From Kangiella sp. (GTDB lineage: Bacteria > Pseudomonadota > Gammaproteobacteria > Enterobacterales > Kangiellaceae): a stretch of DNA of 64,000 nt. This document shows positions 8,458 to 50,723 of the stretch, in pieces; positions within the stretch are counted from its first letter, which is position 1, and each line of letters opens with the position of its first letter. The translations under genes were made by a program, and so were the position numbers. The notes beneath the pieces are model-generated. The model had not been told where the DNA came from. It saw only the letters and a list, made by a program, of their open reading frames with translations, and did not search any database. Location: NCBI GenBank assembly GCA_036568325.1, contig DATCST010000061.1, positions 6,835 to 70,834 of the forward strand, in the 5' to 3' direction.

Positions 8458-8475
8458 AGAGACTATTTGATGATC

Positions 8476-9725: not shown

Positions 9726-9760
9726 TGTTATCCTCCGGGATTGTTGTCACTGTTATTAAC

Positions 9761-11125: not shown

Positions 11126-11163
11126 GCTTTAGCCTTAATTTATTAAACTTTACTTTTTAAGCT

Positions 11164-12054: not shown

Positions 12055-12075
12055 TAATAAATACCCAATCGATTA

Positions 12076-34905: not shown

Positions 34906-34909
34906 CACT

Positions 34910-35503: not shown

Positions 35504-35508
35504 AACTA

Positions 35509-36735
35509 ATGACTGAACGCCCTTCAATTCCAGGACTGATCCTTAGTGGTGGCGGTGCACGTGCCGCTTACCAAGTTGGTGTATTAAAAGCTGTTTCAGA
35601 AATTCTGGAGCATCCTGAAAAATCTCCCTTTAGAATTGTCTCCGGCACATCAGCCGGTGCTATTAATTCCTGTGCGGTCGCTGAACACAGCCACCGTTTT
35701 GCCGAAGGGCTCAGACGCCTGGAACATCTCTGGGCCAACCTGACACCGGATCAGATTTACCACACCAAGTTACGCCAGTTGTCAGGCAATGCTTTCCGCT
35801 GGATTTGGAATATTTTACGCCCAGCCAGCCAACTCAAAAAACCATTGGCGCTTCTTGATAACTCTCCTCTTCGCGAATTGTTGACCACAGCCATTCGCTT
35901 TGATGATATCCGCGAGAACATCAAGAATGGCTTCTTGGATGCAACCTGTATCACTGCATACAACTACAATACAGGCGATTCGGTCAGCTTCTTTCAGGGC
36001 ATACCCGATTTGGTCGAATGGCAACGCTTTAGACGTTTTGGTAAAGCAGAAGACTTGACCTTGTCACACCTGATGGGCACAACTGCCATTCCCATGATTT
36101 TCCCATCGGAGCCTATTAATGATATTCACTTCGGTGACGGCTCAATGCGTTTCTTGACGCCGCTTAGCCCCACCCTGCGATTAGGCGCGAATAAATTGTT
36201 TGTGGTCACGGTAGAGCCTTTGCGTGGCGAAGTCGATCATGAAATCAAAATTCCGTCGATTGGTGATATCAGCGGCCACTTGCTGGACAGTATTTTCATC
36301 GACAGTTTAGAGAGCGATATCGAGCGCATGATGCGAGTTAATGAATTGCTGGCACACATTCCTGAGCGCGACATTGTGCGCGAACAGCTCACGCTGAAGC
36401 AGGTTGATACCTTCATTATTTCACCGAGCATTGATCCGATGGAGCTTGCCGGTCAATATTTTAAAAACCTTCCGCGCGGCCTACGTTTCTTTTTCAAACG
36501 CATTGGTGTTGATGAAGAAAATGGTGAGAGTATTTTGAGCTACCTGCTTTTTGATAAGTCTTTCACCAACCACTTAATTGAGCTTGGCTACCAAGATGCG
36601 ATAAAGCAGGAACATAATATTTTAGACTTCTTTAACTACCAGCAAACTCAGCAAGAAGAAGAATCTGAACAGGAAGATGAATCTGACTATAAGGAATCAT
36701 CTCAACAAGAAGAGCTATCTCAACAAGACCTGTAG
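35509..36735 (+). CDS. Patatin-like phospholipase
   Basis: LSGGGARAAYQVG, GTSAG nucleophile elbow, GDGS; acidic C-terminal tail. Confidence 0.92.
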   Translation: MTERPSIPGLILSGGGARAAYQVGVLKAVSEILEHPEKSPFRIVSGTSAGAINSCAVAEHSHRFAEGLRRLEHLWANLTPDQIYHTKLRQLSGNAFRWIWNILRPASQLKKPLALLDNSPLRELLTTAIRFDDIRENIKNGFLDATCITAYNYNTGDSVSFFQGIPDLVEWQRFRRFGKAEDLTLSHLMGTTAIPMIFPSEPINDIHFGDGSMRFLTPLSPTLRLGANKLFVVTVEPLRGEVDHEIKIPSIGDISGHLLDSIFIDSLESDIERMMRVNELLAHIPERDIVREQLTLKQVDTFIISPSIDPMELAGQYFKNLPRGLRFFFKRIGVDEENGESILSYLLFDKSFTNHLIELGYQDAIKQEHNILDFFNYQQTQQEEESEQEDESDYKESSQQEELSQQDL

Positions 36736-36767
36736 TTTCTAATCAGTAATTTCTAAGAGCAACCGCT

Positions 36768-37823
36768 ATGAACAGCTTTGATGATTTGTTTGCGCATTAC
36801 CCACCGGATGTTGCACCTTTTATGCATCAAATGTTGGCCGATTATCAAGCAACCAAACCCTATAAAGGATTCAAGATTGTTCATAATGTCCCGCTCACTC
36901 AAACCACTCTGCTCAAAATTGCCTGTCTCAAAACAGCCGGTGCCAATATTGTCGTGACCAATCCCAGTTTCATGAACGAAGATCGGGATGCGATACAAGT
37001 TTTAACCAATGAACAGGTGCCTTATCTACCACTGGATTCAGTCAAAGGCGAATTCGACTTTCTCCTCGATTGTGGTGCTGAGCTGGTAGATAAATGCTAT
37101 GCACACAAAGGCATCGTTGAATTGACCCGTACTGGCGCCATGCGCTATCAGCGACACAAAGAATTTCATGTACCGATTGTGTCAGTGGATGATACTCGCT
37201 TGAAATGTCTAGAAACCTGCCTCGGCACTGGCGAAGGTGTTTACCGCGCCATTAGGCAAATCGCCAATGTGGATTTAACCAATAAAAACATTTTGATTTT
37301 TGGTTTTGGTAAAGTCGGTATTGGTATCGCTTACTACTTCTCTAAAATCACAGCCAACGTCATTATTGCCGAAGCTGATAGCTCACGTTTACAACTTATC
37401 GAGCAGCGTGGCTATCAAAGTGTTGATGCCAAACAAGCTCAATTGATAGAACATGCCGCTGAAGCCAGCGACCTGATTATCACCGCCACAGGACTGAAAG
37501 ACATCATCAGTGATAACTATCACTCGGGCGCGTTTAAAGATAAGTTGCTAGCCAATGCTGGCGCTGAAGATGAGTTTGGTTATGCGTTTGATGCAACTGA
37601 AGTTCTCGCCGATAAAAAACCGGTTAACTTTATCCTCAAAGAACCGACCTTGATGGAATTTCTCGATCCGATTTTCTACGCTCATAACATCGCCATTGAT
37701 GATGCGCTGAATAATACACAGACAGGATTTAGAGCTTTGGATCAAAAAACGGATGAGGCAATTGTTAGCCAATGGGCGAAGCATCATGATTGGACGGTAG
37801 AAAAACTCAACCAGATTTTTTAA
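36768..37823 (+). CDS. Divergent S-adenosylhomocysteine hydrolase-like NAD-binding protein
   Basis: AHCY-like layout (ELTRTG, SVDDTRLK, GFGKVG, ITATG, NAG), but several catalytic positions are substituted. Confidence 0.75.
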   Translation: MNSFDDLFAHYPPDVAPFMHQMLADYQATKPYKGFKIVHNVPLTQTTLLKIACLKTAGANIVVTNPSFMNEDRDAIQVLTNEQVPYLPLDSVKGEFDFLLDCGAELVDKCYAHKGIVELTRTGAMRYQRHKEFHVPIVSVDDTRLKCLETCLGTGEGVYRAIRQIANVDLTNKNILIFGFGKVGIGIAYYFSKITANVIIAEADSSRLQLIEQRGYQSVDAKQAQLIEHAAEASDLIITATGLKDIISDNYHSGAFKDKLLANAGAEDEFGYAFDATEVLADKKPVNFILKEPTLMEFLDPIFYAHNIAIDDALNNTQTGFRALDQKTDEAIVSQWAKHHDWTVEKLNQIF

Positions 37824-37847
37824 CTATTCCTAAAACTATCTTGTAAG

Positions 37848-39119
37848 CTAATCAGGAAAATGAACAGCTCGAAATTCATTCTCAAGCTCTAACAGTAAAA
37901 CCTTATCACGTTGCCAGGGTGGGATGCCCTGCTCCTGAAAATAGTTCTTCAACGAGACACTTTTCCCACCCTGTTCAAATCGAATGCGCTCACCACCTTG
38001 GCGACCTTTAACGGTTACGTTTCTTCCAACCAGATTTGGGTAGTTCTGTTGTAACCATTCCAGCGAAATTAAAACTTGACCGTTATGCTCTAAATCATTT
38101 TTTGCAGACCATTCTAGCTCAAGACTGGAATAATCATTAACCGCCTCAGTGACCCAATAGAGCGCATCACGATAACGTCTGATTGAGCCGCAGCCCATCT
38201 CAATTACAGGGTTAGCATCTTCTTTAGCATCCAGCATTTGCGTCTTAACTTGCTGCAATACCGCCTGACTGGGCATATCTGCACCACAGGCTTCTAACCA
38301 GTAACGTAACAGGTTTCTGACTCGCTGCGGGCTTAAGTGCCTGACTCGGGCTAACATTAATGAGTCATGCTGCACCTCATAACAGTTTTCGAAGTCAATA
38401 GCCGCCAGTTCATCCAACAGCTGCTGATTTTCAGCCTGAATCTGGCTGGCGCTAGCAATGACTTTAGAAGCCTGTGGCCACTTTTGTTCAATCAATGGCA
38501 TCACTTGATGGCGCACAAAATTACGTCGAATATCGGTGTCTTGATTGGTCGGGTCTTCAATCGCTTTTAAACCATGAGAATGACAATAATCTTCTACCGC
38601 TTCTCTGGTCACTGCCAACAACGGCCGTGCCAGATAGCCCTTTGCAAACTGAGAAACTTTTGGCATTGACGCCAAGCCTTTACTGCCTGCACCACGAAAC
38701 AACTGCAGCAGGAAGGTCTCAGCCTGATCATTTAAGTGCTGACCGGTTACTAAACAGGTATGAGGATTCTGTATACATCCAGATAATGCCTGATAACGGG
38801 CTTTACGGGCGGCACCTTCAAGACTGGCTGAATCTTTATCGATCTCAACTTGGACGGACTGAAAAGGAATGTCTAAGGACTCACAAAAATGTTGGTTTTG
38901 TTTTGCCCAGTCAGCAGATGCCATTTGCAGTTGATGGTCAATATACACGGCAGACAAGGAGTAATTGGAATTAGAGGTTCTAGCTGAATGTAGCGCATGC
39001 AACAAGCTCAGCGAATCAACGCCACCACTTAATGCAACAACAATGGATTTAACAGATTTAGAAATGCAAAGAGCCAGAAACTCATCAATGGCTTGAGAAA
39101 CTGGCTCTGATTTTGTCAT
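37848..39119 (-). CDS. tilS: tRNA(Ile)-lysidine synthetase
   Basis: ALSGGVDS, AARKARY, GQHLNDQAET, RPLL, RRNFVR motifs. Confidence 0.96.
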   Translation of the reverse strand: MTKSEPVSQAIDEFLALCISKSVKSIVVALSGGVDSLSLLHALHSARTSNSNYSLSAVYIDHQLQMASADWAKQNQHFCESLDIPFQSVQVEIDKDSASLEGAARKARYQALSGCIQNPHTCLVTGQHLNDQAETFLLQLFRGAGSKGLASMPKVSQFAKGYLARPLLAVTREAVEDYCHSHGLKAIEDPTNQDTDIRRNFVRHQVMPLIEQKWPQASKVIASASQIQAENQQLLDELAAIDFENCYEVQHDSLMLARVRHLSPQRVRNLLRYWLEACGADMPSQAVLQQVKTQMLDAKEDANPVIEMGCGSIRRYRDALYWVTEAVNDYSSLELEWSAKNDLEHNGQVLISLEWLQQNYPNLVGRNVTVKGRQGGERIRFEQGGKSVSLKNYFQEQGIPPWQRDKVLLLELENEFRAVHFPD

Positions 39120-39128
39120 AAGAAAAGA

Positions 39129-40088
39129 TTATTCTTCGCTGACAGTACCGAACGACATCAGCTTGTTGTAACGCTTAGCAAGTAATTGCTCAACACTTAG
39201 AGTTTGCAATTCATCCATATCTTTAGTTAAGCGCTCTTTTAAGCTTTTGCCCATCGTAAGGTAATCACGATGCGCACCGCCTAATGGTTCAGCGACGATG
39301 TTGTCGATCAGACCCAAGCTCTTAATACGCTCGGCGGTAATACCCATTGCCTGCGCCGCTTCTTCAGCTTTTTCAGCACTCTTCCAAAGAATCGAAGCAC
39401 AACCTTCTGGCGAGATAACCGAGTAAGTGGAATATTGAAGCATGTTAACGCGGTCGCCGACACCAATCGCCAAAGCACCGCCGGAGCCACCTTCACCAAT
39501 CACGGTAGCGATAATTGGCACTTCAAGGCGCGACATGACTTTGAGGTTACGAGCAATCGCTTCACTCTGGCCACGCTCTTCCGCACCAACACCCGGGAAA
39601 GCCCCTGGCGTGTCGATGAAAGTGAACACTGGCAGCGAGAAACGCTCGGCAAGCTCCATAATGCGCTTAGCTTTACGATAGCCTTCCGGACGAGACATAC
39701 CAAAGTTATGCTTAATTTTCTCTTTAGTATCACGACCTTTTTGATGGCCAATGACCACTACAGGCTTATCATTCAATCGCGCGAGGCCACCGACAATAGA
39801 CGCATCGTCAGAATAGGCTCGGTCGCCAGCCAACTCATCAAAGTCAGTGAAAATGTGCTCGATATAGTCACGAGTGTAAGGACGCTGCGGGTGACGCGCT
39901 AGTTGCGCAACCTGCCACGGCGTAAGGTCAGAAAAGATTTGCTTGGTGAGGTCTTTCGACTTCTTTTTTAAGCGCTCAATCTCTTCGCTAATATTGATTT
40001 CAGTATCTTCGCCCATCATGCGCAATTCATCGATTTGCGCTTCTAATTCTGCGATAGGACGTTCAAAGTCTAGAAAATTCAAACTCAT
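39129..40088 (-). CDS. accA: Acetyl-CoA carboxylase carboxyltransferase alpha subunit
   Basis: [30 protein letters not shown] motifs. Confidence 0.99.
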
Positions 40089-40343
40089 GCCTTATAAAAC
40101 GGTTAGTTAGTGGCGTATAAGGGGCAATATTCTACCCTTATTTGCTTTGATAATGAATGGTAACTTGACTGGTCTAAACTGTCAGCCTTTATCGGCTTAA
40201 AACATTAATAATTCGGCATTTTTACCATCTGGTTCAATTGTACGCTATATTCAGCACCAATAACGATTCAGTTCCGAAAATGGCTATTCAGTTCACTATA
40301 TCCTGCTAAGATAGGACCAAATCGTTCTGCTACACATTGCTTT

Positions 40344-41729
40344 ATGCTCAACTCAGCGACCTTAAAAACCTATCAGCAAGCACGCATGGCACGTGATCCG
40401 CGCTTTGACGGCACTTTTTTTGTCGCGGTGAAAACAACAGGCATCTATTGTCGCCCCGTCTGTCCAGCGCCAGCACCCAAAGAGCAGAATGTTGCTTATT
40501 ACCCCAGTTCCGTGCAGGCGCAAGAAGCAGGCTTTCGCCCCTGCTTGCGCTGCCGCCCGGAAACAGCCCCGCTCTCTGCGGCCTGGCTTGGTAATCAGGC
40601 TGTGCTGAAAAAAGCAGTAGCACGTATTCAGGCAGGCGCTTTAAGTCAAACCTCATTGCAGGACTTTAGCGAATCCATGGGCATTAGCGACCGCTATCTG
40701 CGCAAACTGTTTCAGCAGTATCTTGGCGTCTCGCCGATAACCTATGCCAACCATTTGCGCCTGATGTTCGCTAAACAGCTACTGCATCAAACCCAGCTAC
40801 CTATTACTGATATCGCATTTATCGCAGGCTTCAACAGCGTACGTCGCTTTAATGACAGCTTTAAAGCCACCATGAAACTAAGCCCCAGTAATTTACGAAA
40901 AAAACTAAACAGCCAACAAAGTCCGCAAGAGTCGCAAGCCATTCAATTAAAGCTGCATTACCGTCCACCGTACAACTGGTCAATGATGCAAGAGTTTTTA
41001 AAACAGCGCGAGTTATCGGCAATCGAAACAGTATCGGACCACAGCTACAGCCGTACTTTTAGTCTGGACGGTGTTAATGGCTACTTTACTGCAGAGTTTG
41101 ATTCAACCAGCTCATCATTCAACGTCACCATTGAACTGAGTGATATGAGCAAACTATTGGAGGTCACGCACCACATTCGTCGCGTGCTGGATCTGAACAG
41201 TGATCTGGAAGTGATCGAAAAAACACTGGGACAAGATAAAAATTTACAACCTCTCCTGAAATCTGGGCTGCGACTACCCGCCACCTGGAACACCTTCGAA
41301 GCTGGAGTTAAAGCTATTCTTGGTCAACAGGTTTCGGTTAAAGCTGCTTACACCCACACCGCTAGCGTCATTGAGCAACTGGGCAGTGATTACAACGAAC
41401 AGTACAAACTATTCCCAACGGCACAGCAAATAGTCGATGGCGATTTAAGCTTTCTCAAGATGCCCAATAGCCGTAAACAAACACTACACAACTTTGCCCA
41501 ATGGTCTCTCGACACTAACGGTGAGGACTTATCATCAATACTCACTATAAAAGGCATCGGTCCCTGGACTTATGAATACATCAAATTGCGCAGCGGCTTT
41601 GATAGCGACGCTTTCCCCGAAAAAGATCTCGGCGTGACCAAAGCCATGGAAAAACACAATCTAACCAACACCGAACAATGGCACCCCTGGCGCAGCTACG
41701 CCACCCTGCAACTATGGCACAGCCTATAA
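40344..41729 (+). CDS. alkA: Ada Zn-domain/AraC-AlkA fusion (DNA-3-methyladenine glycosylase II)
   Basis: TTGIYCRPVC and FRPCLRCRP Zn cysteines, AraC HTH, AILGQQVS, HhH GIGPWT, catalytic FPEKD. Confidence 0.88.
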   Translation: MLNSATLKTYQQARMARDPRFDGTFFVAVKTTGIYCRPVCPAPAPKEQNVAYYPSSVQAQEAGFRPCLRCRPETAPLSAAWLGNQAVLKKAVARIQAGALSQTSLQDFSESMGISDRYLRKLFQQYLGVSPITYANHLRLMFAKQLLHQTQLPITDIAFIAGFNSVRRFNDSFKATMKLSPSNLRKKLNSQQSPQESQAIQLKLHYRPPYNWSMMQEFLKQRELSAIETVSDHSYSRTFSLDGVNGYFTAEFDSTSSSFNVTIELSDMSKLLEVTHHIRRVLDLNSDLEVIEKTLGQDKNLQPLLKSGLRLPATWNTFEAGVKAILGQQVSVKAAYTHTASVIEQLGSDYNEQYKLFPTAQQIVDGDLSFLKMPNSRKQTLHNFAQWSLDTNGEDLSSILTIKGIGPWTYEYIKLRSGFDSDAFPEKDLGVTKAMEKHNLTNTEQWHPWRSYATLQLWHSL

Positions 41730-41751
41730 AAGATAAGAGAAGAATTATTGT

Positions 41752-42234
41752 ATGAATACGAAACTTTATTATCAAAAAACACAATGCCCATTCGGCACAG
41801 TGCATATTTATGCCGACGACCAACACCTCAAAGCATTGTTATTTAAGCCATGGAACAAAATGCCAGCGCAAAATCTTCTAAACAAAAGCAATCCGGTTAT
41901 CGAACAAACCCAACGCCAACTCGACGAATATTTCAAAGGTCAAAGATCTGAGTTCGATCTACCCATCAAAGCAGACGGCACAGACTTCCAACAAACCGTC
42001 TGGCAAACCCTATGCAAAATTCCTTTTGGTGAAACCTGGAACTACGGCCAACTCGCCCAAGCAATCGGAAATAAGAATGCCAGCCGCGCCGTCGGCGCCG
42101 CCAACGGCAAAAACCCCATCTCCATCATCGTGCCCTGCCACCGCGTAATTGGAGCAAACGGCACCCTAACGGGCTACGCAGGAGGATTAACCATCAAAGA
42201 ATGGTTACTTAAACATGAAGGGATAATTAAATAA
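41752..42234 (+). CDS. ogt: O6-methylguanine-DNA methyltransferase
   Basis: RAVGAANGKNP and active-site PCHRV. Confidence 0.95.
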   Translation: MNTKLYYQKTQCPFGTVHIYADDQHLKALLFKPWNKMPAQNLLNKSNPVIEQTQRQLDEYFKGQRSEFDLPIKADGTDFQQTVWQTLCKIPFGETWNYGQLAQAIGNKNASRAVGAANGKNPISIIVPCHRVIGANGTLTGYAGGLTIKEWLLKHEGIIK

Positions 42235-42239
42235 CCGTA
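42223..42239 (+). repeat. 17-bp direct repeat, left copy (3' end of ogt)
   Basis: ATAATTAAATAACCGTA, identical at 43894-43910. Confidence 0.9.
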
Positions 42240-42337
42240 GCTATAACAAACAACTTCGGCAACATCATATTGAAACTTTATTAGTAAGTAATAATAGTGT
42301 ATTTTCGTCTTTGACAACCTAAAACCATAAATTATGA

Positions 42338-43897
42338 ATGCTTAATAACGCTCAAAATCAAATTTTCCATATCTTTTTGCCCTTACTTGTAAAGCTACTC
42401 GCATTCGTAGCAGGTTACACTTTATTAAACCTCTTGTTTTTTCATACTATTGATATTTTCGATATTAATGATGATATCCCTAATTTTTATATTCCATTAT
42501 TCACAGTTCCTATTTTTACATTCATCGTCACTAAACAACCATTTCTAGTCTTTGAATATGATGATAAAGGAGGTGACAAAGCCTTCGCTTCAAGGTTTAT
42601 TATCAGCGTTCCACTATTAATAACCACCTGCCTTACACAATATGTTGCCTCTGAGAAGATAGCTAAAATTTCAAACTTTCAAAACGTAGATGAACTCAGA
42701 AATAGTGAACAGGTTAAATATTACACATTTGAAGACTTCTATATCGATAAAGAATATCCCGTTGTAAACACAAACTTCAAGGTCACAGGACAGTACAATA
42801 GCAACTTCCAGATGGACATATTTGTAGCTCTCCCTTTGACAAAATCTGGCGAAGATTCATTCGGTGACAATCCTTACTGGTATGGTATTAAGTACAGCAA
42901 TACGGTTGATAATGAACTAAGCTCGGAAGACAAGAGTCGTTTATTTCGTAAATTTTACACAGAGTCTTTAGCAAAGTTTAATAAGCAAAACCTATATTAT
43001 GTTACTTACTTTGAAAGGTTAAAAGACTATAGCGAAAAAGATCTCTTTATCGAAAAGCATCCATTCTTTAATCAGGATGAAAAAGAAAAGTCCATAGTAT
43101 TCGTCCCAAAGTCAGATAGTTTTGAAGATAGGCTTTCAGGCCTCGGAACTTGGTGGTTCATATCCCTTTCACTAACCATTGTCATTGTATTTCTAACTAC
43201 TTTTATTCCAAACATGAACACATCACGATGGAGAGCCTATTACCATGGTAAAAAGCTGCATGATGAAAGTAATAGCAGGCTTATAGATATCTTGCTACCA
43301 AGAAAAGACTTATTCGTAACGCCTCTATTAGTCATCCTAAATTTAGTGGTTTTCATCATAATGGCCGTTTCTAGCCTCTCTCTAATGAACTTCGAAGGGC
43401 AGCTTTTAATTAACTGGGGAGCCAATTTCTCACCCAATATTGAGTCTGGCGAATGGTGGAGACTCATCACCAGTATTTTCCTTCATGGAGGAGCTTTTCA
43501 CCTTCTATTTAACCTTTACGCTCTCTACATGATTGGAATAATTCTCGAACCTGAAATAAAATCAATACGTTATATAATCTTATATTTACTATTTGGAATT
43601 GTTGCCAGCCTTGTCAGTTTGTCTTGGAATCATGACGCTGTCAGTGTTGGAGCATCGGGAGCAATCTTCGGAATGTTTGGGCTATATTTGGCATTGTTAT
43701 TCACTAACTCAATTTCCAAAGAGTTAAGAGCCTTTGCATCTTGGGTGACTGGAATTGCTGCGATTAGTTTATTATTAGGAGTAATGAATAGCAGCATTGA
43801 CAATGGCGCCCACATCGGTGGTTTGATAACAGGATTCATCCTAGGTTTTTTAATAAGTCCTTTTATCAAAAATCATAGCCAAGATATTCAGAAATAA
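42338..43897 (+). CDS. Rhomboid intramembrane serine protease with a long N-terminal membrane and extracytoplasmic region
   Basis: EWWRLITSIFLH, VGASGAIFG (Ser), NGAHIGG (His); visibly AT-rich. Confidence 0.92.
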   Translation: MLNNAQNQIFHIFLPLLVKLLAFVAGYTLLNLLFFHTIDIFDINDDIPNFYIPLFTVPIFTFIVTKQPFLVFEYDDKGGDKAFASRFIISVPLLITTCLTQYVASEKIAKISNFQNVDELRNSEQVKYYTFEDFYIDKEYPVVNTNFKVTGQYNSNFQMDIFVALPLTKSGEDSFGDNPYWYGIKYSNTVDNELSSEDKSRLFRKFYTESLAKFNKQNLYYVTYFERLKDYSEKDLFIEKHPFFNQDEKEKSIVFVPKSDSFEDRLSGLGTWWFISLSLTIVIVFLTTFIPNMNTSRWRAYYHGKKLHDESNSRLIDILLPRKDLFVTPLLVILNLVVFIIMAVSSLSLMNFEGQLLINWGANFSPNIESGEWWRLITSIFLHGGAFHLLFNLYALYMIGIILEPEIKSIRYIILYLLFGIVASLVSLSWNHDAVSVGASGAIFGMFGLYLALLFTNSISKELRAFASWVTGIAAISLLLGVMNSSIDNGAHIGGLITGFILGFLISPFIKNHSQDIQK

Positions 43898-43910
43898 TTA
43901 AATAACCGTA
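43894..43910 (+). repeat. 17-bp direct repeat, right copy (contains the rhomboid stop codon)
   Basis: ATAATTAAATAACCGTA. Confidence 0.9.
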
Positions 43911-43933
43911 AGAGGTTGCCTTGGCAAGCCCTT
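43907..43933 (+). repeat. REP-like imperfect hairpin
   Basis: CGT-AAGAGGTTGCC-TT-GGCAAGCCCTT. Confidence 0.5.
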
Positions 43934-43975
43934 CTAGAACCAACTGCTCATTACCAGTTATAAATACCGAAAAGA

Positions 43976-44007
43976 TTGTCATTCCGGCCTACGAGCCGGA
44001 ATCTGCT
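43976..44007 (+). repeat. TGTC-tagged REP-like palindrome, copy 2
   Basis: TTGTC-ATTCCGGC-CTACGA-GCCGGAAT-CTGCT; same flanks as copy 1. Confidence 0.75.
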
Positions 44008-44010
44008 CTT

Positions 44011-44046
44011 ATAGGTTGGGTTAGAGACCTAACCTCGTAACCCAAC
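44011..44046 (+). repeat. (G/A)TAG-tagged REP-like palindrome
   Basis: ATAG-GTTGGGTT-N16-AACCCAAC. Confidence 0.65.
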
Positions 44047-44076
44047 AAGACTAACTAAAAGGGGTAGTTACTTTCG

Positions 44077-44388
44077 CTACCCAACCCGCAGCCACAAATA
44101 CTTATGAGACATAAATAATACGTAAACAATAGCCATAAGCACTTTCGGCCCTCTTAAACTAGAACCACCCTGTAATCTAACCTCACCACCTGGCGGTACA
44201 TTAATAGTAACTTTATTGGAACGACACCAATCAATTTTTAAATAGATTTCCTTTTCACCGGAACTAGTCTCGAACTCTATAGACTCTCCATTACCAACCA
44301 TAGCAACTTCATCTCCATTACATATTACCTTGTACTTTCGGACTCTATCCGCGTAGCCGCTATCGCGGGTTATTTTTATTCTACTCAT
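44077..44388 (-). CDS. Hypothetical protein (beta-rich domain plus C-terminal hydrophobic helix)
   Basis: 103 aa, AAGGA RBS; RKYKV...LKIDWCRSN; flanked by CTTTCGCTAC direct repeats. Confidence 0.8.
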   Translation of the reverse strand: MSRIKITRDSGYADRVRKYKVICNGDEVAMVGNGESIEFETSSGEKEIYLKIDWCRSNKVTINVPPGGEVRLQGGSSLRGPKVLMAIVYVLFMSHKYLWLRVG

Positions 44389-44461
44389 TGTTGTTCCTTG
44401 TTTTTGCGCTGAATTATTTTCTTTCGCTACAGTTAATATATCTTTCCCTTCTTTTTATGGC

Positions 44462-44842
44462 TCAATCTACTACATTGACTCCCGGCGGATAATAACTAAC
44501 CTCAAATCTGATCCCATCAGGGTCTTTCATAAATAATGCTGTTACGCCGCCTAAATCCTGAATCTCTGGTGCCTCAAACCCTGCCTGTCTAATTGCGGTT
44601 TGTATAGATTCAACATGCTCTTTCGTAGGTGCAGAGAACCCCAAGTGATTCATACCAGCACCATACCTCTCATAGTCGGACGTGCCAGGCTTGGCCTGTA
44701 AAAATTGAAAAAAGAAGCCGTCACCATCAGTCCATACATGATTCCGTTTTTTGGTAAAACCTACCAATGGAAGCAAATGGTCATAATAAGGCATACTTTG
44801 TTCCAGTGATGATACAAGGATAGTAATGTGATCAAGCTTCAT
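44462..44842 (-). CDS. VOC/glyoxalase family protein
   Basis: LDHITILV, MNHLGF, FMKDPDGIRFEV. Start placed at MKLDH behind AGGA. Confidence 0.9.
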   Translation of the reverse strand: MKLDHITILVSSLEQSMPYYDHLLPLVGFTKKRNHVWTDGDGFFFQFLQAKPGTSDYERYGAGMNHLGFSAPTKEHVESIQTAIRQAGFEAPEIQDLGGVTALFMKDPDGIRFEVSYYPPGVNVVD

Positions 44843-44966
44843 GAAGTTCCTACTAATCATTCTGTATTAGGGATGTTTATTGACAGTAATTTATGGGCTT
44901 ATACCTATTAATACAAGCTTGAACTTCTCATCAATTCAGCTCTATGATTAATCATTGTGTTTACTG

Positions 44967-45650
44967 ATGGAGGTTCTTATTCGCCCTTTTCATATCGCCT
45001 GGATAGTCTGTTTAGTTCCCATCATAGCTGCGCACGGGGCGTATTTTATTGGCCTATGGCAAGGGGTAGCGAATGAGTGTGTGCCATATTTTGAAGGCTG
45101 TACCTCTATTAGTCGTGCCGCGCGCAATGGCGATGCAATCTTTCTGTTTCGTGGTCTGATGATGCCGATAGCAGCTTTCTTAGTTGTGTTCTGGTATTTG
45201 CAGAGTATCTGGCTCAAGGAACTCACACAAAAATCTCACAATACTATTTTCGTGCTGGGAACCATTGGCGCAATATTTTTAGTCTTGTATGCAGACTTTC
45301 TCGGCACGGAAGGTGACTTTTACGAATTTATGCGCCGCTATGGAATCACCTTCTATTTCGCGATGACAATTCTCGCGCAGATGCTAAGCATTCGTAGTCT
45401 GCAAAAAATAAAGGGCACGTTAAACCGAAAGATCAAACGCTACCTTTCAACTCAATTTATTTTGATTTCCATCTATTGGGGATTAGGCATCACCAACGTG
45501 GTAATAAAAGCAACCGGCGTCAGCTGGGCCGATCAGGCGGAAAATGTTATTGAATGGCACTTCGCCTTATATATGTCCTTCTATTTTGGGCTTACAGCCA
45601 TGATGTGGAAGCGCAGTGGCTTTCAATTTCAGTTCAGGATTAACAGATAA
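44967..45650 (+). CDS. Multi-pass membrane protein (Frag1/DRAM/Sfk1-like, tentative)
   Basis: About six TM helices; CVPYFEGCTSISRAAR motif. Confidence 0.65.
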   Translation: MEVLIRPFHIAWIVCLVPIIAAHGAYFIGLWQGVANECVPYFEGCTSISRAARNGDAIFLFRGLMMPIAAFLVVFWYLQSIWLKELTQKSHNTIFVLGTIGAIFLVLYADFLGTEGDFYEFMRRYGITFYFAMTILAQMLSIRSLQKIKGTLNRKIKRYLSTQFILISIYWGLGITNVVIKATGVSWADQAENVIEWHFALYMSFYFGLTAMMWKRSGFQFQFRINR

Positions 45651-45667
45651 GCTTCTAATCACCTCAA

Positions 45668-47098
45668 TCAACGCTCTCTTATTTTGCTCCACATAAACTC
45701 ATCTTTACCCATATTTTCTGAGTTTTTCTTTGCCAGATTTTCAAGCATGATATCAATCTGACTTTTATCAACCCAACGTCCATTAAAGAACACTCCTGAT
45801 ATCTTTCTTGTATTATTAATATCCAACAAAGGGTTTTCATCAAGCAAGACAAGGTCAGCAAACTTACCAACTTCAATAGTCCCGACTTTATCATCAATTC
45901 CTAACCATGTAGCTGCCAACCTTGTTGCAGCTGCCAAGGTTTCTTCTGTGGTTAAACCAGCATCCACTAACAAGGTCAGCTCGTCATGTAATGAATAACC
46001 CCAAACTATACCTGAAGTGCCTGCATCGGTACCCGCTACCATGGGAACGCCAAGCTCTTTAAATGCTTTTACGAGCTTTACATGAAAATCAACCAGCTCA
46101 TCATAGTAAGCAATTCTTTTGGGGGTTGTGCCTTGATTATATTGATTAGCAGTAATCCATTTGTCTTGCATTAATGGATGTACGTATTTAAAACTTGGAA
46201 GATCTCTTACAGCATCCAATGAACGCCCTTGAGCAGCAATACGTACTAAGTTCGATAGATTAGGAGTAACCCAGGAGCCATTCTCCTGAGCCAATCTTGC
46301 AAGCTTATAAGCTTCTTCTTGTGTAAACTCATTGGCTTGCTTTGAGAAATCCTCAGCATGAGCCACTAAACCAAAGTGAGGGACGAAAGCTTCTTCTGCT
46401 TTACCTTCAAAGGCATTGGGTATATGCCCCACCACCTTCATTCCTTGTTTGTTAGCCTCATCCACAATCGCTTTGTAGGTTTCAATATTAAGCCTTGAGT
46501 AAACCTTGATAAATTCGTAGCCATCGCCTTTTGCGATGCGAACAGCCTGGCGCCCCTCAGACGGAGTAGTTGCCACCCTACTCGCATTGCTTCCATCAAT
46601 TAACGCCGCCAACGCAATCCTGGGACCAGTGACATCGCCTTTAACGATTTCGTTTCTTTGCCCGAAATGCTCAACTCTACCGCTAAGTTCAAATGTGGTG
46701 GTAACGCCATTAGCAACGTATAACAGCATAATATCTTGGTTGTCGAAGAAGATTGATGCCCCCTTAGTTGGGTAGTTATTTCCAGGGCTACCATCTACTA
46801 GATTGTGAACGTGCATGTCTATCAGGCCAGGGATAAGCCACTTACCTTCACCATCAATAATCATGGCATCATTTGGCACTTTCCCACCAATGGCTGAGAT
46901 CTTGTTATCGACAATAACAACTGTAGTATTTTCAATGACCTTGTTTTCCACTGTCATTGGAATAACATTAACGTTGGTTAGAACAATTGTTTTATTCTCT
47001 TCATTTTCCTGTCCCAACGCAGAGTGCTGAGTGATTCCGCAACCAGATAGCAAAACCAAGGCCACGCATAAACTCGCTATAAATCGTAAGTTATTCAC
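45668..47098 (-). CDS. Lipoprotein amidohydrolase
   Basis: Lipobox LSGC; IPGLIDMHVH, IKVY, VVGH, AGTDAG, GKFADLVLLD motifs. Confidence 0.88.
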   Translation of the reverse strand: MNNLRFIASLCVALVLLSGCGITQHSALGQENEENKTIVLTNVNVIPMTVENKVIENTTVVIVDNKISAIGGKVPNDAMIIDGEGKWLIPGLIDMHVHNLVDGSPGNNYPTKGASIFFDNQDIMLLYVANGVTTTFELSGRVEHFGQRNEIVKGDVTGPRIALAALIDGSNASRVATTPSEGRQAVRIAKGDGYEFIKVYSRLNIETYKAIVDEANKQGMKVVGHIPNAFEGKAEEAFVPHFGLVAHAEDFSKQANEFTQEEAYKLARLAQENGSWVTPNLSNLVRIAAQGRSLDAVRDLPSFKYVHPLMQDKWITANQYNQGTTPKRIAYYDELVDFHVKLVKAFKELGVPMVAGTDAGTSGIVWGYSLHDELTLLVDAGLTTEETLAAATRLAATWLGIDDKVGTIEVGKFADLVLLDENPLLDINNTRKISGVFFNGRWVDKSQIDIMLENLAKKNSENMGKDEFMWSKIRER

Positions 47099-47281
47099 CG
47101 AAAACTCCTCATCGTGCTTATTCTATTTTCGTAATTATTTTAATCTACGCAAATCAATACACCATAGATACAGCCATGGGATTTCAAAATGTAAGATTTA
47201 ATTTTTATCAGCCAGCTGACTTGTTATAGATAAGGAATGAGGCTGGACTTTAATTAATAGCTTATAGATACAGTTTGGAGC

Positions 47282-47680
47282 TTATACCAAAAGAGCAACC
47301 CACATAATCAATACAGCCATGAAGTTAATGGTAAACACCAAGCCTCTTAACCGAATATTATTCGTTAATATCTGCACTGCGCTATGAATTAATCGGCCAA
47401 CCACAAATATCCAGGCCAACCACACTTGAATAGGATCTGTATTTCCTAATACGATTAACAACACACAGATGATGTGAAAAAATAATGGCCACTCAAATTG
47501 ATTCGATAGATTTGCACTGACTCTAGGTTCAACTGTCGCCCATGTTTCTCTCTTACTTTTACCAACACCCCACACTGCAGGAGCACGAACAATCGTCAGC
47601 AAAACATAAAGAAAAGCAACCCACGCGATGTGGGAAGCCATTGGATAGAGAAGCAGTTGGTGTGTCATATTCGACGTCAT
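47282..47680 (-). CDS. MAPEG family membrane protein
   Basis: NLSNQFEWPLFF and FVVGRLIHS motifs. Confidence 0.85.
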   Translation of the reverse strand: MTSNMTHQLLLYPMASHIAWVAFLYVLLTIVRAPAVWGVGKSKRETWATVEPRVSANLSNQFEWPLFFHIICVLLIVLGNTDPIQVWLAWIFVVGRLIHSAVQILTNNIRLRGLVFTINFMAVLIMWVALLV

Positions 47681-47704
47681 AGGATGATTGTCCTTGTGCA
47701 GTCT

Positions 47705-48739
47705 TTAACTTATTGGCTCATTCACTTTAACCACTAGCTTGCCAAAGTTTTTGCCTTCGAGCATTCCCATGAACGCTTGCGGTGCCTTGTCCAGTCCTTC
47801 AACCATCTGCTCACGATAATGAATTTTTCCTTCCTTCAACCACTGCCCCATGTCTTGAGCAAATTCAGGATAACGGTCCCCATAATCGTCGAAGATAATA
47901 AAGCCCTGCATCTTGATACGCTTGACTAACAAGGTACCCATCAACATACCCATTCTGTCTGGCCCACTAGGTAGTTCAGTGGCGTTATACTGGGAAACTA
48001 AACCGCACAGCGGAATTCTTGCCTTGGTGTTTAAAAGTGGCAACACTGCATCAAACACTTTTCCGCCAACGTTTTCATAATAAACATCAATACCATCAGA
48101 GCATGCCTTCGCTAATTGCTCGGCAAAATCATCGGCCTTATGATCAATACAGGCATCAAAACCTAATGTCTCAACTGCAAAACGACATTTTTCTTCACCA
48201 CCGGCAACACCAATCGCCTTACAGCCTTTAATCTTTGCAACTTGGCCAACCGTTGCGCCAACAGGCCCGGTAGCCGCAGCCACCACCACAGTTTCACCCT
48301 TCTTTGGCTGGCCAATATCTAACAGCCCCATATACCCCGTAAACCCAGGCATTCCCATAATGCCCAAGGCATAAGAGGGATTAGAAGGGTTCTTGCCCAG
48401 CGGCATAACATCTTTACCATCCGTAACGCTGTAATCCTGCCAACCATTCTGGCTCAAGACCCAATCACCCACCGCAAACTTGTTATTGTTGGAAGCTTCA
48501 ACCTGAGCCACCGTACCGCCAACCATCACCTGGTCTAACTTGACCGGATCGGCATATGACTTGGCATCATTAATGCGACCACGCATGTATGGGTCTAAGG
48601 ACAAAAAAATAGTTTTTAGCAGTATTTCGCCCTCTTTTGGCTCTGGCTTAGCCGATTCCACTAGACGGAAATCATCATCGGTAGGAGCCCCTTTCGGGCG
48701 CGAAGCTAATAAGATCTGTCTGTTGTTTGAGTTCGACAT
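47705..48739 (-). CDS. curA: NADP-dependent oxidoreductase (CurA/YncB, prostaglandin reductase-like)
   Basis: SLDPYMRGR, GMPGFTGY, AAATGPVGATVGQ, GKNFGKLVV motifs. Confidence 0.88.
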   Translation of the reverse strand: MSNSNNRQILLASRPKGAPTDDDFRLVESAKPEPKEGEILLKTIFLSLDPYMRGRINDAKSYADPVKLDQVMVGGTVAQVEASNNNKFAVGDWVLSQNGWQDYSVTDGKDVMPLGKNPSNPSYALGIMGMPGFTGYMGLLDIGQPKKGETVVVAAATGPVGATVGQVAKIKGCKAIGVAGGEEKCRFAVETLGFDACIDHKADDFAEQLAKACSDGIDVYYENVGGKVFDAVLPLLNTKARIPLCGLVSQYNATELPSGPDRMGMLMGTLLVKRIKMQGFIIFDDYGDRYPEFAQDMGQWLKEGKIHYREQMVEGLDKAPQAFMGMLEGKNFGKLVVKVNEPIS

Positions 48740-48788
48740 AGGTCATCCTCTAAATTTATTTACATAAGGCTCACATGAGCTACGTTTG

Positions 48789-49346
48789 TTATGTACTAAT
48801 TTCTGCAATGCACTCTTCTCTAATAGCCCAGATTCTTTCCAACTCAGCTTTACTATAGTTATTGCGAATAAAATTTTTATGAAAATTTAACTTTATCTCG
48901 CCAATTTCATTGGGCTTTATAGAAATTTCAGAAAAGAATTTGTTTATCGGTTCGTCGGCTTGCACACTGTATCTTGTAAAATCAAGCCGTTCATCCTGAT
49001 ACCGAAGATAACAGTGTGCTTCAGGAATATATTCAACGTTATGCTTTAGCAAAACTTTACCAACCCCTGAAGTATTCTTTCCTGTCATAGGGTAAATACC
49101 CACTACCAAATCGATATCAATCAAAAGTTCATCTGCTAGTGCTTTCAGTAAAGCATGTTTTGTACTACAAGCACCTCGACTTTCAGTTAGCACAAGTTTC
49201 CAATTAGCTCTGTCAGAAGTTCTTCCGTAAGGCAGTTTCCATACATAATCACATGCAGCGTGAAAACTAGAAATACCACGCTCAATAAATTCTTTTGATA
49301 ATTCCTCACTGTAATCGAGTTTTTTATTAGGTATCAAATTTAACAC
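48789..49346 (-). CDS. Transglutaminase-like (Cys-His-Asp) hypothetical protein
   Basis: GACSTKHALL, EAHCYL and RLDFT give a candidate triad in the expected order; non-ATG start. Confidence 0.55.
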   Translation of the reverse strand: MLNLIPNKKLDYSEELSKEFIERGISSFHAACDYVWKLPYGRTSDRANWKLVLTESRGACSTKHALLKALADELLIDIDLVVGIYPMTGKNTSGVGKVLLKHNVEYIPEAHCYLRYQDERLDFTRYSVQADEPINKFFSEISIKPNEIGEIKLNFHKNFIRNNYSKAELERIWAIREECIAEIST

Positions 49347-49494
49347 TTTACTTCCTTAAGCAAATACCGCTTTCTTATACGAATTCGTATCATAAGACTC
49401 TATTATCATTAGTCTCTTTATACAAGTATCTATTCCGCTCTGTAGCATGCATGTTCTCCAATTTGCCACCATTGGTATTAGTGAAATGTTTTAG

Positions 49495-49548
49495 AGCAGA
49501 TTCTGAATTTCTCGGGAGCTCTACCGTCGTCACAGTTCAGAATGACAA
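49495..49548 (-). repeat. TGTC-tagged REP-like palindrome, copy 3, with an expanded loop
   Basis: Minus strand: TTGTC-ATTCTGAA-(28-nt loop containing GTAG)-TTCAGAAT-CTGCT. Confidence 0.75.
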
Positions 49549-49590
49549 TAATAGAATGGTGGTCATATAAACCATTGATTATTATATCCA

Positions 49591-49648
49591 TGTCGCTTTG
49601 TTGTCACCCCAATGTCGCTCATCCTTCGCGAAGATGTCGTGTTATACT
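49591..49648 (+). promoter_or_regulatory. Five-fold 11-bp periodic operator abutting a -10 element
   Basis: TGTCGC 49591, TGTCAC 49602, TGTCGC 49613, CTTCGC 49624, TGTCGT 49635; TATACT at 49643. Confidence 0.7.
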
Positions 49649-49724
49649 TGGCTTGGAATTTACATAATTCAGGCTCACCACTGTATCAGCCAGCATTACA
49701 ACTAAACACACAAACGGATTGATT

Positions 49725-50261
49725 ATGATTGTTAGAAAATTGAGATTGAAAAGAGGTTGGTCACAAGAGCACTTAGCCGAGTTGATGGGTGTTAGCACTC
49801 GTACGATTCAGCGGATTGAGCGTGGCCAGACTAAGCCCAGTCTTGAAACTCAAAAATCATTAGCCGCTGTGTTTGAAGTTGATATAGCAACATTTGAACC
49901 GTCCATAGCTATGGACAGCACAGGAGAGCCTGATATGAACACCACCAATACCAATGAAACAACACAAAACACTGAGCGAGCCGCTAAACCGAAACCAGCC
50001 ATTGAAACAGTAAGCAATGAAGAGGCCGAAGCGATGGAATATGTAAAAGGGATTAAGGAGTTTTACTCTCATCTGCTTATTTTTATTATTTTCACCGTTA
50101 TGTTTATCTTTACCGGCAAAATCAACGATATGTTAATCGCCTGGTCGGCCTGGACTTTCGGTTTGATTATTCACGGTTTACAGGCCTTTGAAATTATCAA
50201 TCTTTTCAAAATAAACTGGGAAAAGAAGATGGTGGAAAAGCGCTTGAAGAAAAAGTTGTAA
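49725..50261 (+). CDS. XRE-family HTH regulator with a C-terminal 2TM domain
   Basis: WSQEHLAELMGVSTRTIQRIERG; C-terminal VKGIKEFYSHL...WTFGLIIHGL...WEKKMVEK. Confidence 0.88.
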   Translation: MIVRKLRLKRGWSQEHLAELMGVSTRTIQRIERGQTKPSLETQKSLAAVFEVDIATFEPSIAMDSTGEPDMNTTNTNETTQNTERAAKPKPAIETVSNEEAEAMEYVKGIKEFYSHLLIFIIFTVMFIFTGKINDMLIAWSAWTFGLIIHGLQAFEIINLFKINWEKKMVEKRLKKKL

Positions 50262-50272
50262 TTCGCCGTCAT

Positions 50273-50300
50273 ATTGAGCAGACTTTAAAGTCTGCTCAAT
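50273..50300. repeat. 28-bp perfect palindrome
   Basis: ATTGAGCAGACTTT-AAAGTCTGCTCAAT with no spacer; preceded by CGTCAT. Confidence 0.8.
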
Positions 50301-50317
50301 TCTACAAGTAATTCCAG

Positions 50318-50713: not shown

Positions 50714-50723
50714 ATATTTAGAC

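Follow-up and report, generated by a model that had tools for sequence, protein, structure and literature searches.

Introduction

Deletions in lacI, described by Albertini et al. in 1982, are reportedly the classic examples of DNA loss between short direct repeats. Among small variable segments of bacterial genomes, 10 to 18% are flanked by direct repeats, mostly shorter than 30 bp, and these segments have been ascribed to slippage deletions (PMC2884548). The H47 island of Escherichia coli, which spans 13 kb and carries no recombinase of its own, is bounded by long imperfect direct repeats with four homology blocks and is lost independently of RecA; its circular form and its re-integration have both been detected by PCR (PMC5426353). 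Transformable bacteria are also reported to undergo homology-facilitated illegitimate recombination (de Vries and Wackernagel 2002; Prudhomme et al. 2002; cited in PMC2884548 and PMC3240628). Kangiella genomes are marked by lineage-specific gene loss and contain few mobile-element genes (PMC6000758).

Here we analyze a rhomboid gene that lies between two copies of a 17-bp direct repeat in a 64-kb stretch of DNA of a marine Kangiella bacterium, the whole of which we call the window. The locus resembles known short-homology deletions in that the repeat is shorter than 30 bp, one copy is left in the empty allele, no element-encoded enzyme is involved, and presence or absence varies at the level of strains. 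It differs from typical cases in that the repeat, a perfect one of 17 bp, is at the upper end of the length range and encloses an entire functional gene together with its promoter. Both copies overlap stop codons, so that loss is clean for the neighboring gene; unlike the classic deletions, this one is read from sequences alone. Like H47, the segment has no recombinase of its own, is bounded by direct repeats and would be lost without RecA. In contrast to H47, it consists of a single gene with a 17-bp repeat and a vertical history, and it gives no sign of a circle or of re-integration. Our reading, which we hold with good but not complete confidence, is that the rhomboid gene is an old resident of the site behind ogt, and that the lineage of a conspecific strain lost it by a short-homology deletion between the two repeats.

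Results

The ogt gene (41752 to 42234, + strand) encodes an O6-methylguanine-DNA methyltransferase of 160 residues (Pfam DNA_binding_1, 7e-37; Methyltransf_1N, 7e-13). Its last codons and its stop codon (TAA, 42232 to 42234) sit inside the left copy of a perfect direct repeat, ATAATTAAATAACCGTA (42223 to 42239, + strand). The right copy (43894 to 43910, + strand) contains the stop codon of the rhomboid gene (TAA, 43895 to 43897). The copies start 1,671 bp apart, as the initial annotation had described, with 1,654 bp between them. No third match was found at up to two mismatches, and two matches turned up in none of 100 shuffles. Chance alone would give about 0.025 exact direct repeats of 17 bp or more, with copies no farther apart than 3 kb, in a 64-kb window, which amounts to roughly one such repeat per Kangiella-sized genome; taken by itself, the repeat is rare rather than extraordinary. 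It gains meaning because its ends coincide exactly with the endpoints of an indel: flank alignments define a 1,671-bp segment (42240 to 43910, equivalently 42223 to 43893) that is present here and missing from the conspecific strain L001. The insert is AT-rich, as had been stated, with 35.6% GC in the rhomboid gene against 47% in ada and ogt together. A search for an inverted repeat joining the two segment ends found none, and an Rfam search of 41500 to 45000 gave no match.

Between the left repeat and the rhomboid gene lies a 98-bp spacer (42240 to 42337, + strand) with a promoter-like TTGAAA-17-AATAGT element at 42270 to 42298. This element is kept in the spacers of two other Kangiella loci, L082 and L090, while the remaining spacer is only ∼58% identical to that of L082. 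The L082 spacer contains an ACCGTA that we considered as a fragment of the left repeat moved out of place; the alignment gave no support for it.

The rhomboid gene (42338 to 43897, + strand) encodes a protein of 519 residues, of which residues 371 to 508 match the Pfam Rhomboid profile (PF01694; 4.3e-35; 121.4 bits against a cutoff of 22.6), covering profile positions 2 to 142 of 143. Three N-terminal transmembrane (TM) helices are followed by a beta-rich domain (about residues 110 to 260) that is probably periplasmic, a fourth TM helix and a GlpG-like 6-TM core (residues 327 to 518). The WR and HxxxN motifs and the catalytic serine and histidine are invariant in 34 homologues (W374-R375, H388, N392, G438-x-S440-G441 and H492). 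A PDB sequence search matched GlpG and iRhom. The AlphaFold model (pLDDT 79; loop 346 to 383 of low confidence) superposes on GlpG, and Foldseek comparison with GlpG chains gave a probability of 1.0 and a target TM-score of ∼0.6 to 0.66. By domain, motifs and predicted fold, the protein is a member of the rhomboid family of intramembrane serine proteases (PF01694/S54), and it is probably an active one. It has the features common to the GlpG and GluP (YqgP) types (PF01694, MEROPS S54), namely the 6-TM core, WR, HxxxN, GxSG and the TM6 histidine; it adds to them an N-terminal extension of ∼325 residues with four extra TM helices and the beta-rich domain, and it is missing the cytosolic N-domain and the C-terminal TPR of YqgP. 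The N-terminal beta domain had no Pfam or PDB match, and the LptE-like and coat-protein-like matches that Foldseek returned for it were nonsignificant (E > 0.1).

Named database entries show this architecture elsewhere only in Bacteroidota. All named full-length homologues outside Kangiella belong to that phylum, at 33 to 37% identity, which bears out the resemblance to Bacteroidota rhomboids that the initial annotation had noted for the N-terminal half of the protein. A search for a donor taxon, which it had suggested, led to no close donor: for both allele types found at this site, the closest non-Kangiella homologue is less than 40% identical.

An empty site with one repeat copy, which had been predicted for a close relative, is present in L001 (NCBI GCA_048265365.1). 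Positions 1 to 8488 of L001 align with 33748 to 42239 of the window at 99.3% identity, and positions 8472 to 12233 align with 43894 to 47671 at 97.1%. The two alignments overlap by exactly 17 bp, the empty allele is otherwise unchanged, and the Ogt protein is identical. The direct repeat flanks the segment in the filled allele and exactly one copy stands in the empty allele, which is the pattern of a repeat-mediated deletion polymorphism. The right flank of L001 is 97.8% identical to that of the window, whereas those of two other empty loci, L002 and L003, are 65 to 80% identical to everything; the loss in L001 therefore arose in the window's own lineage, independently of the other empty sites. 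Window and L001 differ at three positions on each side of the junction within ∼140 bp, and this low density of single-nucleotide polymorphisms (SNPs) speaks against the import of a block of divergent DNA.

Counting copies that directly follow ogt, at least four other Kangiella lineages have the gene; counting synteny more broadly, at least five do, and six other assemblies show this gene order. It stands directly 3' of ogt in L082 (85% amino acid identity), in L090 (58%) and, as a second allele type, in L004 and L092 to L094, while the copy in L088 (47%) occupies the same accA-dnaE interval. All copies in relatives fall within the ogt-dnaE interval; in the core clade they follow ogt directly. 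The type-2 allele, which is only 38 to 42% identical to type 1, is thus carried at this site by a different lineage of Kangiella. A tree of the flanks resolved as ((((W+,L001-),L004+),((L082+,L003-),L002-)),L090+), where W is the window, + is filled and - is empty, with 99 to 100% bootstrap support at key nodes. In this tree the basal state is filled; empty sites are nested within it, scattered as sisters of filled ones. The rhomboid tree is congruent with it, and the groups of the window with L082, of these two with L090 and of all Kangiella alleles each have a bootstrap of 100. Nucleotide identities between the window and L082 are 86.0% for accA, 85.9% for ada, 84.9% for ogt, 87.7% for the rhomboid gene and 90.0% for the right flank; by this comparison, the rhomboid gene has diverged as its flanks have. 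All alleles are of low GC content (33 to 37%; GC3, 0.29 to 0.36), and since this is common to every allele, it is no sign of recent import. Synteny, supported trees and co-divergence together indicate, from the distribution of the gene, that the filled state would be ancestral.

The repeat copies can be followed separately in relatives. The right copy is found at 17/17 positions in the same place in L082 and is near-identical in L004. The left copy is found at 16/17 in filled strains of metagenome runs X2 and X3, which lack the right copy and have a different 3' flank. By these matches, both copies predate the genome. The basal filled locus, L090, has no repeat, and L090, L004/L092 and X5-type strains are all occupied without a matching repeat pair. 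That the right copy is 17/17 identical to its counterpart in L082, where the spacer is at ∼58%, was somewhat surprising. The perfect identity hints at constraint or homogenization.

The search for mobile-element functions agreed with the earlier statement that the window holds no integrase or transposase: no open reading frame of at least 110 codons in the 64 kb matched integrase, transposase or RAYT families. No second copy of the exact rhomboid protein was found, and no plasmid or phage record covered at least 80% of it. PADLOC, run on the rhomboid gene and its neighbors, returned only generic HTH matches, for an HTH-2TM gene. We considered several classes of element and rejected them. A transposon, insertion sequence or MITE with target-site duplication has neither a transposase nor terminal inverted repeats nor other insertion sites here. 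For an integrative element with attL and attR there is no integrase, and the occupied L090, L004/L092 and X5-type loci have no matching pair. An integron cassette fails on the missing integrase and array, the misfit of the right repeat's surroundings to the core sites RYYYAAC/GTTRRRY and the differing ends of occupied sites. The 17-mer with its adjoining stem-loop is not a dispersed element either, as neither the window nor a set of 113 loci contains further copies. A scan of metagenomes with the ogt-tail pattern GAAGGGATAATWAAATAAC returned 19 loci, none of them Kangiella-related.

Discussion

We propose that the tails of ogt and the rhomboid gene supplied identical 17-bp direct repeats, and that the L001 lineage lost the DNA between them together with one copy. 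Such a loss would leave ogt intact and join it to the stem-loop that formerly stood behind the rhomboid gene. Replication slippage, template switching or another RecA-independent exchange could have produced it, and no element-encoded enzyme would be needed. Short-homology-dependent illegitimate recombination is the most likely mechanism, by whichever of these putative pathways. As to polarity, the phylogenetic distribution makes a deletion in the relative most likely rather than an insertion here, because the gene is syntenic, its tree is congruent, it co-diverges with its flanks and both repeat copies are older than the genome. A gene regained from a conspecific by homologous recombination would be expected to give an identical picture.

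The repeat pair itself probably stems from an older rearrangement in the common ancestor of the window, L082 and L004, one by which the rhomboid gene would have gained, on its 3' side, a second ogt tail with the stem-loop. It is plausible that the ogt tail was duplicated long ago. Homology-facilitated illegitimate recombination is a possible route, and it could have used ada/ogt as the homologous anchor and the ogt tail as the place of the illegitimate joint; we invoke it here just as a proposed ancestral origin of the repeat. Further back, an ancient transfer between phyla, from Bacteroidota to an ancestor of Kangiella, is plausible and even likely because the protein type is otherwise seen in Bacteroidota.

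If the deletion is as we describe, it offers a clean natural case in which an entire gene was lost between repeats of 17 bp, in a genus already known as genome-reducing; such a loss is an ordinary route by which bacteria shed genes. The locus also carries a caution: a perfect repeat, an AT-rich gene and a clean empty site mimic a fresh capture, and the direction of the event can be read only from relatives, where it most likely proves to be the opposite of capture. The gene also documents a rhomboid of the Bacteroidota type that carries a large additional domain, long resident in a gammaproteobacterial genus and still of low GC content. That a single site holds two alleles so far apart may be a case of selection on a membrane protease. 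A broader and rather doubtful view is that the site behind ogt is a long-lived polymorphic hotspot at which type-1, type-2 and null states are shuffled between lineages, with breakpoints that may lie at the stop codon of ogt and within the final 100 nt of the rhomboid gene. If this were true, balancing or diversifying selection would act on the domain that varies and is probably periplasmic, for instance through phages or competitors' toxins that target it, and the 17-bp repeat would serve as a switch to the null state.

An exchange of alleles is the alternative that survives best, and we consider it unlikely: filled and empty alleles would coexist in the population, and the window strain or L001 would have received its version by homologous recombination in the flanks. 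Several observations are in keeping with this. Recombination-like SNP clusters separate the window from L001 at 38654 to 38895, 41684 to 41760 and 47062 to 47653, and a block at 47671 to 49568 is replaced. The six differences in ∼230 bp around the junction are somewhat above the background of ∼0.4%, and this slight excess, within ∼140 bp on either side, makes a short recombination tract carrying one allele possible. Metagenome run X3 holds filled and empty contigs together; L003 is empty, yet its flanks are 96.4% identical to those of the filled L082, with a right flank only ∼74% identical to L082's; and the type-2 allele sits in flanks that are 87 to 91% identical to those of the window. However, with L001 flanks 97.8 to 99.3% identical to the window, the donor would have to be nearly identical. 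An exchange also would not replace the deletion mechanism but only move its place, as a deletion mediated by the repeats, or else an older duplication, would still be the founding event somewhere in the lineage.

The initial annotation had favored a single-gene capture in this genome, in which an L001-like empty site is ancestral and the 1.65-kb segment was inserted by 17-bp target duplication or microhomology. The perfect repeat with its clean empty site, the AT-rich insert, the Bacteroidota-like architecture and the resemblance of the right copy and stem-loop to a displaced ogt tail would all suit such an event. We nevertheless judge it quite improbable and largely refuted by synteny, since the gene is ancestral and syntenic in the genus, with congruent trees and flank-like divergence. 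Each repeat copy is found separately in relatives, the low GC content extends to all alleles, and there is no transposase, integrase, terminal inverted repeat or other copy, nor, with the nearest outside homologue below 40% identity, any donor. An ancestral gene, syntenic across the genus, is also what the annotation had itself named as speaking against its proposal.

We consider it highly improbable that the segment is a mobile islet without a recombinase, whose repeats serve as attachment sites at which a function of the host excises it as a circle and re-integrates it. Its position at a gene's 3' end with a repeat that restores the stop codon, as att sites do, fits this idea, as do the three empty sites whose junctions fall within a common ATAAT(T/A)AAATAAC block and a precedent in which short direct repeats recombined to excise an island, independently of RecA and with no recombinase encoded by the island (PMC5426353). 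Against it stand the filled L090, L004/L092 and X5-type loci that have no matching repeat pair, the vertical gene tree and the finding of the gene at no other site, plasmid or phage. No joint or circle was seen in the assembled contigs of the metagenome runs examined for them, nor did any contig of the window's own run show the 42239/43894 joint; such contigs cannot show rare forms. Finally, a false join marked by the repeat can practically be discounted, even for a metagenome-derived window, as an independent Logan contig of run X1 (a metagenome holding 97% of the window's words) spans 42097 to 44600 with zero differences, X2 and X3 contigs cross the left junction, the repeat is shorter than the assembler word length and the six other assemblies agree in gene order.

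The DNA behind the right repeat holds three palindromic structures. The first, a decayed stem-loop directly after the repeat (43910 to 43933, + strand), folds at only -6 kcal/mol (z = 0.4); its counterparts in L004 (-18.6 kcal/mol) and L082 (-15 kcal/mol) are strong and GC rich. In the empty sites it follows ogt immediately; it lacks a T-run, and we take its role to be probably that of a shared transcription terminator. The hairpin that had been placed at 43907 therefore exists and does follow ogt where the site is empty, but it lies at 43910 to 43933 and is weak here. Two REP-like palindromes farther on are stronger. One, CATTCCGGCC..GGCCGGAATC (43980 to 44003, + strand; -13.9 kcal/mol, z = -2.5), is kept throughout the core-clade loci, and in L003 its changes are paired so as to preserve the stem. 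The other, GGTTGGGTTAGAG..CTCGTAACCCAAC (44014 to 44046, + strand; -15.9 kcal/mol, z = -3.5), is likewise conserved across these loci. Each is present as a single copy in the 64-kb window, and at 43976 to 44010 the depth of metagenome contigs is raised 4 to 8 times, with several different flanks.

Gene content and the empty site

The window comes from the core chromosome of a Kangiella species. Its rhomboid gene (a 519-aa ORF on the plus strand, 42338-43897) has in its neighborhood tilS and accA on the minus strand, ada-alkA and ogt (41752-42234) on the plus strand, two minus-strand genes (a 103-aa ORF and one of the glyoxalase family) and a plus-strand gene for a 231-aa membrane protein. The initial annotation had described a perfect 17-bp direct repeat around the rhomboid gene, and we confirmed it: ATAATTAAATAACCGTA occurs exactly at 42223-42239 (the left copy, with the ogt stop codon inside) and at 43894-43910 (the right copy, with the rhomboid stop codon inside), and the window contains no third match at two or fewer mismatches. 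Chance alone should place two exact direct copies of 17 bp or more within 3 kb of each other ∼0.025 times per 64-kb window, or about once per genome; the repeat by itself is therefore uncommon, not extraordinary.

An empty site with one repeat copy had been predicted in relatives. By looking up the exact Ogt protein we found L001, the corresponding locus of a conspecific genome (NCBI GCA_048265365.1), in which the 103-aa gene comes immediately after ogt. BLAST aligned L001 1-8488 with window 33748-42239 at 99.3% identity and L001 8472-12233 with window 43894-47671 at 97.1%. Because these two alignments overlap by exactly 17 bp and the L001 junction (...GAAGGGATAATTAAATAACCGTAAGAGGTTGCC...) holds a single repeat copy, the predicted empty site is real, and the two genomes differ there by a precise 1,671-bp indel. 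Single-nucleotide differences between them stay at a background of ∼0.4%, except for three per side within ∼140 bp of the junction; there may be a short recombination tract around it, and no divergent block was imported together with the rhomboid gene.

Polarity of the event

The initial annotation had proposed a recent capture of this single gene. The closest homologues of the rhomboid protein are all encoded between ogt and dnaE in loci of Kangiella type, and those of the core clade are positioned directly 3' of ogt. They comprise P0002 (85% amino acid identity to the window protein; loci L082 to L087), P0003 (58%; L090), the 521-aa protein of L004 with its 95% relative P0121 (L092 to L094), and P0005 (47%; L088), which is placed somewhat further along the accA-dnaE interval. 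A neighbor-joining tree of the flank from accA through ogt, in which W is the window's locus and plus and minus signs mark presence and absence of the gene, gave ((((W+,L001-),L004+),((L082+,L003-),L002-)),L090+), with L005-, L088+ and L006- outside and bootstrap values of 99 to 100% at each key node. The rhomboid protein tree was congruent with it, at 100% support for (W,L082), for (W,L082,L090) and for all Kangiella alleles together. Nucleotide identities between the window and L082 are alike for the rhomboid gene (87.7%) and its neighbors (accA, 86.0%; ada, 85.9%; ogt, 84.9%; right flank, 90.0%), indicating that the gene diverged along with its flanks.

If absence were ancestral, related genes would have had to enter this one site about four times, from donors whose relationships mirror those of the recipients; if presence were ancestral, two or three losses suffice. 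In the right flank L001 is 97.8% identical to the window, and L002 and L003 are 65 to 80% identical to all other loci; the L001 empty site thus had an origin of its own, within the lineage of the window and separate from that of the other empty sites. In all three empty sites the joint between ogt and the downstream stem-loop falls in one shared ATAAT(T/A)AAATAAC block, with an additional 9-nt tandem copy in L003. The synteny in relatives, the congruent trees and the codivergence make it most likely that the polarity of the event is the reverse of a capture.

The AT-richness to which the capture proposal had appealed is genuine, with 28 to 39% GC between the repeat copies versus ∼45 to 48% in ada and ogt. 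Low GC (33 to 37%, with GC3 of 0.29 to 0.36) is nevertheless common to every allele in every lineage, and we therefore regard it as a stable property of the gene, not as a mark of recent arrival.

Probable gene loss and its proposed mechanism

The mechanism with the best support is a deletion that depended on the short homology of the two 17-bp repeats, whether through replication slippage, template switching or some other exchange without RecA. Such a deletion would have taken out the spacer, the rhomboid gene and one repeat copy, and would have kept ogt intact and now adjoining the stem-loop. Repeat-mediated deletion is a known process that commonly generates variation between strains: in Escherichia coli, Staphylococcus aureus and Streptococcus pyogenes, 10 to 18% of small variable segments bear flanking direct repeats, mostly of <30 bp, with which deletions are often associated (PMC2884548). 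It also fits the lineage-specific gene loss through which Kangiella has become genome-reduced, with very few mobile-element genes (PMC6000758).

The capture proposal had invoked target duplication or microhomology; the distribution of the repeat contradicts a fresh target duplication. At the 3' end of its rhomboid gene L082 matches the right copy 17/17, and L004 has a near-identical copy. The left copy, running on into GCTATAAC, occurs with a single mismatch in each case in the strains of metagenome runs X2 and X3, whose rhomboid gene is ∼96% identical to the window's and whose contigs diverge from the window at 43889, so that the right copy is absent. Since copies occur in relatives and are older than the window genome, and since the repeat is lacking altogether in the basal filled locus, L090, the 17-bp identity is not a recent target duplication, nor does it mark how the gene first arrived. 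Within the left copy the first 12 nt are under ogt coding constraint, and the right copy is mostly noncoding; the right copy with its stem-loop looks like a displaced ogt tail, from which we infer that this tail may have been duplicated by an earlier rearrangement, in the ancestor shared by the window, L082 and L004, possibly through homology-facilitated illegitimate recombination.

Among alternatives, the H47 island offers the nearest precedent: it likewise has flanking repeats and no recombinase, and it undergoes RecA-independent excision between those repeats (PMC5426353). The claim that no recombinase gene lies nearby was upheld by Pfam scans of all ORFs of at least 110 aa in the 64-kb window and by the L001 gene table, which returned housekeeping genes only and no integrase, transposase or RAYT family. 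Reversible mobility like that of H47 is improbable for the rhomboid segment, because several occupied sites lack a pair of repeats and the gene has descended vertically. We found no inverted repeats linking the segment ends, no second copy of the gene, no plasmid or phage record with a full-length relative, and no other copies of the 17-mer plus stem-loop as a dispersed element in the window or the 113 loci compared. That the filled form is an assembly artifact was ruled out by an independent contig from metagenome run X1, which covers 42097-44600 with zero differences from the window, and by X2 and X3 contigs crossing the left junction. We consider the locus a new example of repeat-mediated gene loss, a known phenomenon; the protein family is known as well, and the N-terminal extension is unusual.

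Allelic states and the 3' junction

The most interesting by-product of the analysis is that the site exists in three states within the genus: the window-like type 1 allele, the empty form and a divergent type 2 allele. The type 2 allele occupies L004 3549-5114 and L092-L094 7001-8569, corresponding to window 42232-43796. Flanks in these loci are 87 to 91% identical to the window and the rhomboid gene is 38 to 42% identical in amino acids and 52% in nucleotides, homology stopping at the ogt stop codon and restarting ∼100 nt before the rhomboid stop. Type 2 groups with the Kangiella alleles (bootstrap, 100%), and no close relative of it was found outside Kangiella.

Contigs of the X3, X5, X6 and X7 metagenome strains (rhomboid gene ∼96% identical) leave the window exactly at 43889, with the loose end TGGAGTGATTAATTGACACC..., and in X5 positions 43890-43997 are replaced by 303 nt. 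Breaks thus recur at the rhomboid 3' junction, which is followed by at least three different flanks.

The rhomboid protein and its expression

The rhomboid domain is complete (aa 371-508; 121 bits in Pfam), and 34 homologues all retain the WR, HxxxN and GxSG (S440) motifs and H492. Profile matches to GlpG and iRhom chains are confined to aa 327-511. An AlphaFold model (pLDDT, 79) predicts transmembrane helices at 4-37, 46-69 and 80-108, a beta-rich domain at 111-258, a transmembrane helix at 269-289 and then a GlpG-like core. In GlpG the N terminus of the core is cytoplasmic, and for this reason the beta domain should be periplasmic. This domain is the most variable region between alleles and has no match in Pfam, PDB or the defense library. 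The initial annotation had likened the N-terminal half to Bacteroidota rhomboids, and a Bacteroidota-like architecture was borne out: all named homologues outside Kangiella are from Bacteroidota, at 33 to 37% identity over nearly the full length, which makes an ancient transfer into the Kangiella ancestor plausible.

The 98-bp spacer contains a promoter-like TTGAAA-17-AATAGT, conserved in L082 and L090. In the oligo-dT metatranscriptome X15, two 151-nt contigs match the rhomboid gene exactly (42593-42743 and 42790-42940) and none match ogt or the flanks; these weakly suggest transcription, DNA carry-over being possible.

Palindromes, other repeats and variable segments

Relatives have a strong stem-loop 3' of the right repeat; in the window it has decayed. 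Two adjacent REP-like palindromes, stronger than the window's stem-loop, lie 3' of it (43976-44048; L003 6570-6634). The pair is conserved across the core Kangiella clade, and in L003 the first stem has changed from CCGGCC..GGCCGG to CCGTAC..GTACGG, paired changes that keep the stem. The window holds one copy; metagenome contig depth at 43976-44010 is 4 to 8 times that of neighboring sequence, with several different flanks, pointing to a dispersed repeat family. A perfect 28-bp palindrome (ATTGAGCAGACTTT / AAAGTCTGCTCAAT, 50273-50300) between an HTH-2TM gene (49719-50261) and a 131-aa ORF (50318-50713) could be a terminator or operator.

Two other exact direct repeats lie within genes. A 23-bp repeat, TCCAGGTGGTTAGTCGGCTCATC (15416-15438 and 16271-16293), in a 652-aa ABC-F-type gene (14878-16836, minus strand) probably reflects a conserved motif of its two ATPase domains, and a 17-bp repeat, AATCACCAATAACCACA (57788-57804 and 57908-57924, 120 bp apart), in an lpxD-like hexapeptide-repeat gene (57471-58520) probably reflects that gene's internal repeat structure.

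Gene content of the ogt-dnaE interval (window 42235-50723) varies by Kangiella species (L082, L090, L092, L088, L005 and L006). Lineage-dependent genes encode a hexapeptide acetyltransferase, DJ-1/PfpI, two MopE-like copper-binding proteins, Imm32, NERD, glyoxalase, amidohydrolase and HTH-2TM proteins; no recognizable mobility genes were found in these loci or the window, and the L006 interval is almost empty. At the ada stop/ogt start junction (41684-41760), 14 differences from L001 cluster within 99%-identical surroundings, a pattern resembling a short patch of recombination or indels. These 99%-identical relatives also differ in a second variable block, at window 47062-49568 and L001 11620-14060. 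It opens with a dense cluster of differences in and around a MAPEG gene (47062-47653), followed by a nonalignable stretch. Here the window carries a zinc-dehydrogenase-family gene (47705-48739) and a 185-aa ORF, with very low GC3 (0.26), and L001 carries ORFs of 230 and 289 aa without Pfam hits.
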